Below, in pieces: positions 1 to 56,603 of a stretch of DNA of 64,000 nt (position 1 is its first letter; each line of letters starts with the position of its first letter). The notes below the pieces were generated by a model, which worked only from the letters and a program-made list of their open reading frames with translations, did no database searches and was not told where the DNA came from. Source of the DNA: Candidatus Babeliales bacterium (lineage in GTDB: Bacteria; Babelota; Babeliae; Babelales; JANWKD01). The stretch covers positions 864,001 to 928,000 of the forward strand of contig CAVRJM010000001.1 of assembly GCA_963722075.1 (NCBI GenBank), written 5' to 3'. Position numbers and translations under genes: made by a program.

Positions 1-151
1 TATAGAATAGTTGCTCGTATTTATGTAACAAATGGAGATTTACAGATTATCCATAGTAAAATTCAGGTATTATTATTTTTTATTTTTAATAAATATTTAT
101 AATGAATGTTATCACGTTCAGAAAGAATGGTTATGCATTTATTTTTATTTA

Positions 152-1298
152 CAGGACTTACGCAAGAGCATAAGAGTTCTCTTCAAAAGCATAAAATAAA
201 CTAGATGGTGTAGGGGGTTTTGCGACCCGAAAGGATCTGACAGCTTGTTCAGTATTGTCGAAATTATCTTTTACCCGCCTTATGTCGGCTAAAGCATAAG
301 CCCATAACACGAAAAGTAAATGCGCACGCTGCATGTTAAAAGAACGCATTTGGCATTCGCTGAATCCAAGAAGTTGTTTGGCAGTTCTATTGAAGCATTC
401 AATTTGCCAACGAATCTTATATGTAGAAATTAGCTTCTCTTTGCCGAGCTGATGGCTACTGATAAGATACATAATTTTTTCCTTATCAATTTTTAACACA
501 TAGAAATAACAGGAAAGACCAAAAATAGTGCCGTATCCACAAGCAAATCTGTTATTTTTTTTCAAACGTAAAATTTTTTGCAATTGTCCTGTTTTATTGT
601 TAATAGTAACAACGCGATTTCTGGGAATTTTCATCAGAAATTTTATTGACCTGTTAAAAAGCTTTGGCAGAAGGTATTCAGTCGCATAATGGGCATCTGC
701 AATTAACCAATTAAACCGAATTGATCCTAGAACACGCTCTATAATAATGTAAGCAATTTCACTTTTTGTCTTGTAATTGGTTTCTCCAAATACTTTGCTT
801 ATCATAATCTCCGCATCAATCGGTATTCTTACTCTGGTATCAGTGATCATGCCAATTACAGACCGTAATCCCAAAGCTGATCTTTTCTCACTACTATCAT
901 AAACAATTTCTAATCCTTCAATATCGTTAGCATATTGCTTATTTACGGGAGTATCATCGATTATCAAATATCTTTCGCAATTGCTAAGACTTTCTAGAGC
1001 AACATTTTGTAATGAGCTTGTTATTTCTGCTGCATTCTGGGCTGCTTTTTCAACTTCCCTATTGAGCACATCATGCATTATTCCCAGTGTTTCAGAAATA
1101 TTTGTGCAAACTTTTCGTGCCGTTGTTTTTAATAAACCCATTACATATTTTGGTGTGCTTGATTCTTCATTTGTATTTGTTATTCTCATTTCGGGTGTCC
1201 TTCTTTTTTGCTTTTGTTGTTTAATTCACAAAATTGAAGCACCCTTTTTTATTTATTTCAAGTCCCAATCAGAACTTTCGACCAATGCGTAAGTCCTG
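152..1298 (-). mobile_element. IS701-family insertion sequence (copy A)
   Basis: Perfect 13-bp terminal inverted repeats CAGGACTTACGCA (152-164) / TGCGTAAGTCCTG (1286-1298); 7-bp target duplication TTATTTA (145-151 and 1299-1305); one DDE transposase inside. Confidence 0.93.
158..1189 (-). CDS. IS701-family DDE transposase
   Basis: Motifs LIIDDT..K, IADAHY, YKIRWQIECFNRTAKQLLG..CQ.R. Confidence 0.9.
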   Translation of the reverse strand: MRITNTNEESSTPKYVMGLLKTTARKVCTNISETLGIMHDVLNREVEKAAQNAAEITSSLQNVALESLSNCERYLIIDDTPVNKQYANDIEGLEIVYDSSEKRSALGLRSVIGMITDTRVRIPIDAEIMISKVFGETNYKTKSEIAYIIIERVLGSIRFNWLIADAHYATEYLLPKLFNRSIKFLMKIPRNRVVTINNKTGQLQKILRLKKNNRFACGYGTIFGLSCYFYVLKIDKEKIMYLISSHQLGKEKLISTYKIRWQIECFNRTAKQLLGFSECQMRSFNMQRAHLLFVLWAYALADIRRVKDNFDNTEQAVRSFRVAKPPTPSSLFYAFEENSYALA

Positions 1299-2847
1299 TT
1301 ATTTATTATCTTTTCATTAATAGTATCGATACACACTCCCAATCATGGCATGGAAGCGCCAGCTGACAAAGAAGATGCTGTTACCATTATTTCCATAGAT
1401 AACGAAAAATTAACCATTCCTACTAAATGCAGCAAAAGCAATAATGCCTGATTTGTATGATTTATGCATTCAGTTTAATGAATCAATAATAAATTTTAAT
1501 AACGAAAATGATAAACATCCAGATACCAAAAAATATAAAAAGTTGCCCATAATCAAGGAGTTAATAAGAATAGCCCAAGATTCTTTATATAGCCCAGAAT
1601 CAAAAAATATTAATTATATTTTTGACGCAGCGATCTATTTTAATTCTTCTTCTATCATTTTAAAACGATTAACCTATCATGCTCGAAAAAAAGTTTCACT
1701 AGAAAAACTGCGTCCAGAGATTCAAGCGGGAGTTTTCTCTTATTCTATTGAAGAACTTTTTGATGAAAAATTCTTCGATGTAAATAACATTGTAAAAATA
1801 CAACATGTTGAAACGGGCAGAGGAACTCAAGCCGGTGTAGTTCTTTATGAAACGCATTATTATAACCCATATCTGGATCTTTCAGATTACAATATTGGAT
1901 CGTTAGTTGGCTTATGTAATTTAAAAGAAAAAATAAAAGCGCATCGCATAAAAATAAAAGAACATATTGAAAAAGGTCAAACTAAAGATGGGTATACACC
2001 AACAAAAATTACCATTACAAATGGATACACCCAAGCAAAAGAGATTTACAAAATTAAACTCAATAAAAATGTTTTAACTGATAATTCGCTTGGAATTATT
2101 TCTTCATTCCATCAACATTTCCCTCGATTGAAAGTTTTAAAGCTTAAAAAAAATCAATTTACCCAATTTAATCCTACTTTTAACCCAAAGAATACAATGG
2201 TAGGATCCTATCTTTTTTTAGTGAGCCTTAACAACAATAACCTTAAAAAGTTACCTCAATATCAAAACTGCAACAAACAATTAATATTCAAAATAAAAAA
2301 TAATCCGCTCACTATAAGAAATCGGTATATAGCTCGAAGTGGGTCGCGCTTAAGAGATGTTTTTCTCTCTCCTTTAATAGGATTGAGTATTGCCTTAGGT
2401 ATTAACGCTGGAGCGAAATTATTGTATCGATCATTCTTGCATAATTATGTATCGCTTGCACCAAGCCATGAAGAAGCTATTAAAGAATGGGGTACTTATC
2501 CTCTAGGTGCATTTTTTCTATATGGTTTATTTAACAAATTTAGCTTTTCTCCTTCTATAACTCCGCCAATTTACAAAGTAAGTCGCCCATCCACCTATAC
2601 TGAATCTTTTTATGAGTTTCTAGAAGATATACTTAATATCAATTACGATCTGTTTATTGGTAATCCAAAAAAAATCTGTTCTTATTTTTTAACTAAAATT
2701 ATGAGAGCTAAACATTCACAATGAACAATTCCCATGTACCATTCAGTTTTATGTCTTCTATTGATTATAGCTTTCAACATATAACTATATTCATGGAAGT
2801 ACCTGAAAAAGAAAATTTCATCTATCATTATTTTACCAAAGGACATC

Positions 2848-4092
2848 ATGTTATTTTATTATCTAATTTTTTTATTAGGTTCAATGAGCTACAATTCTCT
2901 CTTAAGTATGGAAGGCCCCTCATCATCACCAGAAGATATAATAACGATCACTGATATCAATAACGAAACCTTTAGCATATCACGCGCTTCTTTGCAGCTA
3001 ATAACGCCCTCCTTTTCATCGTTTTATGAAGATTCAACAGAATTAAATTTTCAAGAATTGACTGATACAAGATCACAAGACATCTGTAAACATGCAACTA
3101 AAGCAATTATCTTAGAATTAGAAAAGATTGCTCAAGATTCATTATACTGCCCTCCGCTCGATGCTATTAATTATCTTTTTGAAGCAGCTAATTGTTTTGC
3201 ACATCCACTTATTCTAGAACGACTTACCTATTATGGGCATAAATACCTTCCCGTAAACAAGCAACATAAACTTATTCAAGCACAACATTATTCTTATACT
3301 ATAGCTGAACTTCTTAATGAAAAATTTTTTGACATAAAGACCATCATAAAGTATCAAGAAACGCATCATAGATTGTACGGTCATTGGCATGATGGCCATT
3401 CATATGAAAAGCTGATTTTTGAATATTGGCTTGATTTATCAGGGTACAATATTGGATCGCTTATAGGATTTGAAGAATTATGGAGTCAACTTGCTACGCT
3501 TCATGTCCCAAAAGAAACAATTGCCAGTACCAAATTTCCGCCCTATAGTGTAAAAGGCTGCCCTAAAAAAGGGTTAGTGTTCAAAATTAAACTTAATAAT
3601 AATGCATTAAGATCCATCAAACATTTAAATGAATTACTTAATTTATTTCCACGTTTAGAAATTATAAAATTAAATGATAATCCTCTAAGGCTTGTCGATG
3701 ATGAAATTACTAATATGCGATCTGTTACTATTAAAGCAAACAACCAAAAACATGAAATATTTCATAAAGCTCAAAATGCGCTTCTCCTTAAACGGCATAT
3801 TTTGCCACGCACTACTCCATCCAATAATACTCCGGCAAGCCTTGAACCCGGATATCTTTCAACAATTGGAACGTTAATAAGCCCTATTTTGATCGGCATT
3901 GGCGTTGGAGCAACAATGCAAGCATGGATTCATTTAGCTGCACCATTTTTAAAACATTTTTCCCTAAATGATACTCAAATTGATACAATAGATGATCGGC
4001 TTTCAACCATTGTTGGATTAACACCTCTAGCCATTGGCGTCATGAGCTCATTGTTAAAGACCTGGCATTATTATAAACATAATCGCCTATAG
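2848..4092 (+). CDS. Secreted Skp1/BTB-like + leucine-rich-repeat protein with C-terminal hydrophobic segments (putative effector)
   Basis: Signal peptide; ITITDINNETFSI and LFEAANCF resemble Skp1/BTB; FPRLEIIKLNDNPL is LRR-like; two C-terminal hydrophobic stretches. Confidence 0.65.
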   Translation: MLFYYLIFLLGSMSYNSLLSMEGPSSSPEDIITITDINNETFSISRASLQLITPSFSSFYEDSTELNFQELTDTRSQDICKHATKAIILELEKIAQDSLYCPPLDAINYLFEAANCFAHPLILERLTYYGHKYLPVNKQHKLIQAQHYSYTIAELLNEKFFDIKTIIKYQETHHRLYGHWHDGHSYEKLIFEYWLDLSGYNIGSLIGFEELWSQLATLHVPKETIASTKFPPYSVKGCPKKGLVFKIKLNNNALRSIKHLNELLNLFPRLEIIKLNDNPLRLVDDEITNMRSVTIKANNQKHEIFHKAQNALLLKRHILPRTTPSNNTPASLEPGYLSTIGTLISPILIGIGVGATMQAWIHLAAPFLKHFSLNDTQIDTIDDRLSTIVGLTPLAIGVMSSLLKTWHYYKHNRL

Positions 4093-4184
4093 AATAGCTG
4101 CTCGAATTTATCTAACAAATTGAGATTTTAAGTTTTTTTCCTTATAATAACAGCTAACACTTCTTTTTGATCCTCAAATAATAA

Positions 4185-55882: not shown

Positions 55883-56113
55883 ATGAATAAAAATATAATT
55901 ATTTTTTTAGTAATCACCGTTGTTGCTAGTAATCTTTATGCTATGCAACAAATCAACAACCCCAATTCTTCAAAAGAATCAAAAGATAATCAAGAAAGAC
56001 TACCCGATATAGAATTGGTATTTGGAAATGATTATCTTCTTAAAGACTGTTCTCCTACACAAAAACAAGAAATAATAAAAAGACTAAAAGAAGAAAAGAT
56101 AATAAAAGAATAG
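55883..56113 (+). CDS. Small secreted protein (paralog 1)
   Basis: ASNLYAMQQ...LPDIELVFGNDY. Confidence 0.65.
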   Translation: MNKNIIIFLVITVVASNLYAMQQINNPNSSKESKDNQERLPDIELVFGNDYLLKDCSPTQKQEIIKRLKEEKIIKE

Positions 56114-56126
56114 GATTTAATTTATT

Positions 56127-56364
56127 ACTGGATCCTTACGTTCCGTCTTCGTTAAAACTCCGCCGGACACGCACTTTCTATTACCACAATCCGCCGTAGC
56201 CTTGGCGAAGTCGGACGTGCTTCGGGATGACGGAAAACGTCGTTGCGACCCGTCTTCACTAAAGTTTCGTCGGACATGGTTTACGAACAACTGCGTCCGC
56301 CAAAGTTGTTTACTCCGCCATAGCTTTTTTTAGCGACGGCTGGATTAACGTAGGCGGATCCAGG
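56127..56364. repeat. Large nested REP-like palindromic cluster
   Basis: CTGGATCC...GGGATGAC shell containing CCGTCTTCG..CCGGACAC and TCCGCCGTAGCCTTGGCGAAGTCGGA; second unit with a doubly nested TCCGCC hairpin. Confidence 0.85.
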
Positions 56365-56387
56365 TTCAAATAAAGGAATATATAAAT

Positions 56388-56603
56388 ATGAAAATAGCCA
56401 TTTTACTTATGCTATGTGCTAGTAATCTTCACGCTATGCAACAAGATGAACCACCAATAAATTACCCAATAAAAAGAGTTGAAAAAGTTCCTGATATAGC
56501 ATTGAAAATGGGGCATGATTACATAAAATATAAAATTAAACAGGAAGATGAAGCGCATTTACCTATATCAGCCCCATTACAAAAAAAAGAAAAGAACGAA
56601 TAA
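56388..56603 (+). CDS. Small secreted protein (paralog 2)
   Basis: ASNLHAMQQ...VPDIALKMGHDY. Confidence 0.65.
   Translation: MKIAILLMLCASNLHAMQQDEPPINYPIKRVEKVPDIALKMGHDYIKYKIKQEDEAHLPISAPLQKKEKNE

Follow-up and report, generated by a model that had tools for sequence, protein, structure and literature searches.

Across the genome of a Candidatus Babeliales bacterium (Dependentiae/Babelota), predicted signal peptides are frequently followed directly by methionine, and this residue at the first position of the mature protein (+1) forms a real pattern which is strong, genome-wide and lineage-restricted. A preliminary description of one stretch of this genome, the 64,000 nucleotides at C1:864001-928000 (hereafter the window) of the 1.47-Mb, 99% complete assembly G000, had listed eleven largely unrelated open reading frames (ORFs) with such a junction and proposed a lineage-specific effector tag. 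Ten of the eleven are intact and read as described, and in the genome as a whole the frequency of Met at +1 lies far above the background, with 156 of 578 predicted sites (27%; background 1.8%; p about 1e-130). Dependentiae are described as intracellular parasites of protists (PMC12172432, PMC6561590). No published description of the rule was found in a literature search that did without most subscription journals.

Genes and signal peptides were called by purpose-written programs, and all cleavage sites given here are predictions. Among the 1416 genes of the set, 624 encode a hydrophobic N-terminus without a later transmembrane segment, and sites were called in 578 of these by a weight matrix that covers positions -13 to -1 only, is blind to +1, and was trained on 254 signal peptides, none of them with Met in residues 12-38. 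At offsets other than +1, this matrix finds Met in 0-39 of the 578 proteins, and Gln occupies +1 in only 26. Besides these strict calls (n=156), a wider Met class (n=219) was defined by accepting near-best sites too; it makes up 38% of the called signal-peptide proteins and about 15% of all genes. With an untrained -3/-1 rule, Met stands at +1 in 158/578 proteins versus 1/36 exported proteins of Escherichia coli (p=0.0003), the latter being annotated exported proteins hand-picked from five 50-kb regions; the sole E. coli match is LamB, whose true cut lies two residues later. In a model-free count, a small residue followed by Met and then by Glu, Asp, Gln, Asn or Lys occurs within residues 14-34 of 213/624 signal-peptide-like proteins, compared with 19/624 in the control region (residues 44-64) and 28/672 proteins lacking a signal peptide. 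Likewise, before any model is applied, Ala, Ser or Gly precedes the Met in 62% of cases versus 20% at control Mets. The 213 Met-class members with a small residue at -1 fall into 149 clusters, 116 of them singletons, and when one protein is counted per family, Met is still present at about 103 of 421 sites. Alignment of 16 non-overlapping paralog pairs, each anchored on a Met-bearing member and with the +1 column left out, shows Met retained in 15 and the flanking positions in 6-12. Met-class genes are also clustered on the chromosome, forming 67 adjacent pairs versus a mean of 39 and a maximum of 56 in 1000 shuffles.

In regard to the structure of the junction, classical Sec signal peptides cut by signal peptidase I (SPase I) are about 20 residues long, with successive n-, h- and c-regions and a small residue at -1. 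Judged by their sequences, the Met-class peptides follow this layout, having a basic n-region, a hydrophobic h-region, a small -1 and a small or aliphatic -3 residue within about 20 residues. Position -1 is Ala in 44%, Ser in 23% and Gly in 19%, with Pro in about 5%, while -3 is Leu in 33%, Ile in 15% and Ser in 11%, besides Ala. The -3/-1 profiles are alike in Met and non-Met peptides, and what sets these peptides apart from the classical ones is the predominance of Leu, Ile and Ser at -3 and Met at +1 in 27-38% of them versus the single E. coli case.

The next residue is constrained as well. In N-termini of the NatB type, Met precedes Glu, Asp, Asn or Gln, and the suggestion that the +2 residues fit this set was borne out: they are present in 168 of the 219 Met-class proteins versus 99/359 non-Met proteins, the most frequent +2 residues being Glu (98), Gln (29), Asn (21), Asp (20) and Lys (16). 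Small residues at +2 are rare (14/219; background about 35%), as are Leu, Ile, Phe, Tyr and Trp together (12/219; background about 29%). Furthermore, the early mature region is more polar in the Met class (0.63 vs 0.54), and motifs resembling nuclear localization signals (NLS) open the mature chain in 11/219 Met versus 5/359 non-Met proteins. C-terminal Phe occurs in 8/219 and 29/359, respectively.

The proteins carrying the Met are not a random sample of the exported ones. For 338 of the 624 proteins scanned against Pfam (40 tiles, first 450 residues) and classified by family name, the Met class comprises 16/26 proteins of eukaryote-type (ankyrin, WD40, C2H2, J-domain, Sel1, UCH, SET) versus 2/20 envelope proteins (p=0.0006), both of which are apparently signal anchors and look like miscalls; with strict calls the figures are 11/26 and 1/20 (p=0.006). 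The expectation that Met is enriched in the former and nearly missing from the latter thus held. Among the other categories, orphans without a family reach 102/245, while enzymes (3/32), cytoplasmic false positives (0/11), tetratricopeptide repeat proteins (0/2) and others (0/2) contribute little. Forty ankyrin genes were mapped in the genome, and 21 of the 32 with a called signal peptide have the Met. The junction is also found in all four Skp1_POZ proteins, three called by the model and one by eye, and no match to an F-box-like family was obtained in this genome. Four tandem secreted proteins of 718-892 residues (C1:973394-982682) have doubled Skp1/POZ-like domains; two of them have an NLS-like KRK motif where the mature chain begins, and one ends in CaaX. 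In secreted J-domain (DnaJ) proteins (C1:304120-310160 and 1064190-1065518; L018, L029), the J domain lies right behind the Met, and these proteins are likely aimed at host Hsp70. Two further proteins with strong signal-peptide-like N-termini, a glutamine synthetase (L035:5025-6374) and a MutS_III-like protein (L011:13696-15045), belong to families that are normally cytoplasmic.

CaaX motifs are substrates of host cytosolic prenyltransferases. They form the C-terminus of 9/219 proteins in the Met class, of 1/359 with a signal peptide but no Met, and of 0/838 of the rest, with no excess at shifted positions, which suggests that Babeliales may use host prenyltransferases. Four of the nine Met-class proteins constitute one paralog group, including a duplicate. 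Five secreted CaaX proteins were also noted in the relatives G003, G014, G090 and G057.

The distribution outside this genome was surveyed in 20 relatives, which represent 15 families, with 80 kb and 10-33 proteins sampled per genome. Pooled over all relatives, Met occupies +1 in 55/408 proteins and other offsets in 0-16. Eight of the 20 show the rule clearly (p<0.01), in line with the lineage restriction anticipated by the preliminary description; it appears as a single occurrence in five and was not seen in seven, which, because the samples are small and the Met genes clustered, does not amount to absence. Many loci linked to NrdB in the relatives also show the Met, in up to 13/17 proteins. 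A FastTree phylogeny of PolA (28 sequences; three outgroups) places Met-positive genomes mainly in one moderately supported clade (0.77), which has exceptions, and some of them outside it. In two relatives, G057 and G058, ankyrin proteins show stereotyped junctions of other kinds (loci L207-L236 and L297-L299), approximately YA-A-QE or CS-QQ in G057 and NA-LPA-A in G058, with ambiguous cuts, and these may take the place of the Met rule in particular lineages. A minority of the G058 ankyrin genes have a Pro↓Met junction (by eye; arrows mark the predicted cut). With regard to the idea that lineages lacking the Met have Ser or Ala in its place, small residues or Met at +1 occur in ankyrin versus other proteins at 16/26 vs 20/37 in G057 and 16/41 vs 11/22 in G058, the sites again being ambiguous.

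Several known systems invite comparison. The Q-rule of Bacteroidetes is likewise a lineage-wide fixed +1 residue after an SPase I site, for which a stabilising effect on the mature protein has been proposed, and is reported from all compartments (48% or more) (PMC5837995). Here, however, the residue is Met instead of Gln, a +2 rule is added, no cyclising enzyme is implied, and the pattern is confined to host-type and orphan cargo instead of being independent of compartment. The Plasmodium export element (PEXEL) also resembles our junction, as export cleavage at its xE/Q/D end leaves Glu, Gln or Asp at +2 of proteins whose destination is the host cytosol (PMC10653839). In contrast, our peptides contain no RxL and depend on no plasmepsin; they have Leu/Ile/Ser at -3, Ala/Ser/Gly at -1 and a fixed Met at +1 in a bacterial Sec/SPase I context, and their role in export is putative. 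By sequence, the rule works like the Q-rule in fixing the +1 residue, and its predicted product resembles that of PEXEL, but it belongs to neither. A third parallel comes from phytoplasma effectors of the SVM family that act inside eukaryotic cells: the SAP54/PHYL1 homologs in supplement file 5 of PMC8026896 (first five places per search term) have a Sec signal peptide followed by Met-Asp or Met-Asn, reading VMG↓MD/MN or VMA↓MN/MD with the cut placed by eye. The word methionine is absent from the main text of that paper, and the SVM_signal profile PF12113 had no match at E<=1 in G000.

The reading that we favour, in our judgement about evenly poised between right and wrong, is that Sec cleavage would expose a eukaryote-like Met-(Glu/Gln/Asn/Asp) start on host-bound proteins and so let them resist N-terminal degradation in the host. 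Such proteins would be exported by Sec through their n-h-c peptide, with a small -1 and an aliphatic or small -3 residue, and cut by SPase I at the predicted site. The step after this is probably type II secretion; G000 has two secretins, GspC and pseudopilin-like genes, the secretins being unusually large (about 930 and 800 residues) and clustered with GspC (C1:1152861-1160265; L033-L034). No secretion system other than type II is reported in Babela (PMC4378268), and two gspD copies are reported in Dependentiae (PMC4776705). That the proteins would reach the host cytosol or nucleus is suggested by the CaaX tails and by cargo with ankyrin, WD40, C2H2, J-domain and Skp1-like modules. There, Met before an acidic or amide residue would mostly be kept by Met aminopeptidase, would avoid the Met-hydrophobic degron and would fall into the NatB acetylation class, a purpose that we infer from eukaryotic rules, according to which the aminopeptidase leaves Met in place ahead of a large residue, and Met before a hydrophobic residue may act as a degron (PMC8037982). 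Both small and bulky hydrophobic residues are avoided at +2, the set found there being that of NatB, and 259 of the 422 non-Met predicted +1 residues (61%) are of Arg/N-degron types, as classified in PMC11735805. A broader version, which we put forward tentatively and consider rather doubtful, is that bacteria whose effectors enter eukaryotic cells by way of Sec convergently encode a second, eukaryote-style start behind the signal peptide; in Babeliales it would serve both as a type II address separating host-bound from envelope proteins and as a shield against host N-degron ligases, and hence would allow effectors to be predicted genome-wide in a phylum almost without cultures.

A number of observations weigh against a stable host-like N-terminus. 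Unacetylated Met-basic termini are UBR targets (PMC11735805), yet Met-Lys, Met-Arg and Met-His starts are not clearly depleted (24/219); NatB is described as co-translational, and Met-Asn and Met-Gln are cleavable unless acetylated (PMC8037982). The suspected effector tag is indeed enriched in eukaryote-type proteins and orphans but is not universal: 11 of the 32 ankyrin proteins with a signal peptide have no Met call, although some of these are model misses, and two UCH deubiquitinases (with a Gln-Pro-Pro start), a SET protein and a WD40-like protein of the window are exported without it. About 5-6 independent families account for the CaaX signal, and among proteins of the relatives the motif ends 4/322 without and 0/86 with the Met. 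In the ankyrin-rich G057, Met was found in 0/32 sampled proteins and, by eye, in few of the ankyrin genes. Finally, the phytoplasma parallel concerns one family with an unrelated signal peptide in an unrelated, wall-less phylum, and SAP11 homologs in the same supplement read VMA↓AP, starting with Ala-Pro.

Alternatively, Met followed by Glu, Gln or Asp could be a second-step sorting signal for type II secretion, a chaperone or a vacuole translocon, which could coexist with the stability reading and which we regard as possible, if on the improbable side. The clean split from envelope proteins, the polar early mature region, the type II genes of G000, and the presence of Glu, Gln or Asp at +2 in 147/219 proteins, as in PEXEL (PMC10653839), speak for it. 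On the other hand, at least two secretin matches were obtained in 81/81 genomes of the phylum, mostly in frames of 750-1100 residues, while the rule is clear in only eight of the 20 relatives sampled. Secreted hydrolases are the typical cargo of type II systems, yet here they mostly lack the Met, and host-acting proteins without Met occur. Moreover, phytoplasmas have no outer membrane. Their similar junction, though seen in one family, is more easily explained by a role directed at the host than by a tag specific to type II secretion.

The Met could also be the former start codon of genes that were captured, or once encoded cytoplasmic proteins, and later acquired a signal peptide upstream; it would then have no present function. 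The prevalence of orphan and eukaryote-type members, the clustering of the genes, and one J-domain protein whose domain begins just past the Met as in a normal cytosolic J protein agree with such an origin. It is nevertheless unlikely, as Glu makes up 45% of the +2 residues versus 33/701 at residue 2 of non-exported proteins, and the retention of Met in paralogs while the flanks drift suggests purifying selection on the Met codon. Shine-Dalgarno relics are also missing before the second Met, and no DNA cassette common to the N-termini emerged, the matches being short and as common in non-Met genes (68 Met genes among 183 involved).

An internal start producing a cytoplasmic isoform, offered as an alternative in the preliminary description, is very improbable. 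Public gene calls do begin at the second Met for the window genes at 2848 and 4436 (one call for the latter), and initiation without a Shine-Dalgarno sequence is conceivable; 5890, 26254 and 26779 are full length in all public records, so that second-Met starts concern two of five judgeable window genes. However, a Shine-Dalgarno sequence precedes the first ATG in 159/219 Met-class genes and the second in 0/219, compared with 307/6615 (4.6%) of ordinary internal Mets. GTG (4 of 24 Val codons) and TTG (3 of 39 Leu codons) show no excess at +1, and the bias towards host-type cargo is at odds with such starts as well. Since a gene call that begins at the second Met hides the signal peptide, public secretomes of the group are probably under-called. 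A dedicated SPase I paralog demanding Met after the cut is just as hard to credit: G000 and many relatives have two SPase I genes, but G014 (99% complete) has one match and 4/17 Met, G007, G010 and G024 have at least two matches and strict Met in 0/14, 0/21 and 0/10, and the -3/-1 profiles are alike. Initiation on host ribosomes (Kozak) was rejected, as it would fit Ala, Gly or Val at +2, which are depleted.

Published Dependentiae secretomes already include a very large signal-peptide fraction (44% reported), secreted ankyrin, WD40 and ubiquitin-system proteins, and type II secretion with two gspD (PMC6561590, PMC4378268, PMC4776705), whereas the main texts of these papers contain neither the word methionine nor a +1 rule. 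The two-residue rule provides a list of candidate effectors, most of them without a known domain. No injection machine is known in Dependentiae, yet much of their genome is given over to secreted eukaryote-like proteins. If the stability reading is true, the rules of protein turnover in the host would shape the signal-peptidase site of a bacterium, and phytoplasmas may offer a parallel case.

The window genes are collected in Table 1. Cleavage before Met, as described for the ten intact ORFs, is ranked first by the model in six, and lower in the other four. The eleventh, a supposed gene starting at 133, was an error: this ATG sits in an insertion sequence, and the NHG↓MEA junction belongs to a frame-broken gene downstream, whose nearest upstream ATG (1285) is in another frame and whose ORF 1444-2724 is in a further one. 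For the gene placed at 26239, a start at 26254 is likelier.

Table 1. Met-class genes, comparators and associated features (window positions unless a contig or locus is named; rank, place of the cut before Met among the model's sites)
Feature	Position	Strand	Met codon	Rank	Remarks
Multicopy insertion sequence	91..1240	-			DDE transposase 158-1189; holds ATG 133
Frame-broken paralog of 2848 gene, NHG↓MEA	1285..2724	+	1350		
LLS↓MEG protein	2848..4092	+	2908	1	Orphan, no confirmed domain
TAA↓MEE protein	4436..5431	+	4514	6	Orphan
Ankyrin-repeat protein, VQA↓MKK	5890..7404	+	5944	1	
WD40-like exported protein without Met, LYA↓ETT	18884..19855	+			Counter-example
LYA↓MCM protein	21397..21765	+	21457	1	Atypical +2 Cys; no Pfam match
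Comparator without Met, AHA↓YKP	21968..22531	+			Putative beta-barrel; Pfam scan blank
LLG↓MRP protein	26254..26769	+	26308	1	Paralog of 26779; marginal ankyrin similarity
LKG↓MQH protein	26779..27282	+	26833	3	
VAS↓MQQ protein	44987..45244	-	begins 45190	2	85-aa orphan
IKP↓MQS protein	49542..49841	+	49605	2	Pro at -1
LYA↓MQQ protein	55883..56113	+	55943	1	76-aa orphan
LHA↓MQQ protein	56388..56603	+	56436	1	71-aa orphan; N-terminus like 55883
Two exported thioredoxins, comparators	56791..57873	-			56791: model places Met inside signal peptide
UCH deubiquitinases and SET-domain protein without Met	L032:14491-15513, L033:9061-10410, L040:16412-16879				
CaaX-ending secreted proteins (9 Met-class, 1 other)	G000 C1:812523-825808, 980472-982682, 1328018-1328227; C3:20045-20461; C4:15299-15535				

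The eukaryote-type domains ascribed to these ORFs were upheld in part. The ankyrin repeats of 5890 are solid, those of 26254 are marginal (Ank_4 E=0.0013, below the cut-off), and a leucine-rich repeat (LRR) or Skp1-like domain was unconfirmed: LRR matches in 2848 and 1444 reached E-values of 0.3-0.45 only, and neither Skp1_POZ nor a Skp1 profile built from the genome gave a match. A homolog search with 2848 returned two matches, both from the window itself, and a single-sequence fold model (predicted local distance difference test score, pLDDT, 38) gave no identity; a Skp1/LRR identity of this protein was consequently rejected after all four approaches yielded nothing. The Met call in thioredoxin 56791 is a model error, LNA↓LEN being the likelier site by eye.

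The insertion sequence has six other near-full-length copies (>99.5% identical) and one partial copy in the genome and has recently spread. A tRNA gene (4185-4258) lies between two Met-class genes; transposases and a helicase-like ORF are close to it, which suggests that this neighbourhood is an integration hotspot. Between 31963 and 44987, a glycosylation-type island contains three FkbM methyltransferase-like ORFs, glycosyltransferases and an asparagine-synthase-like ORF (by eye), and its signal-peptide proteins lack the Met, except for the adjoining orphan at 44987-45244. Finally, the nearest non-Babeliales records for NrdB (60848-61849), among the best 80, include some titled Woesearchaeota, Micrarchaeota, Acidobacteria and Dadabacteria (77-80% identity), hinting that this gene may have spread by wide horizontal transfer.

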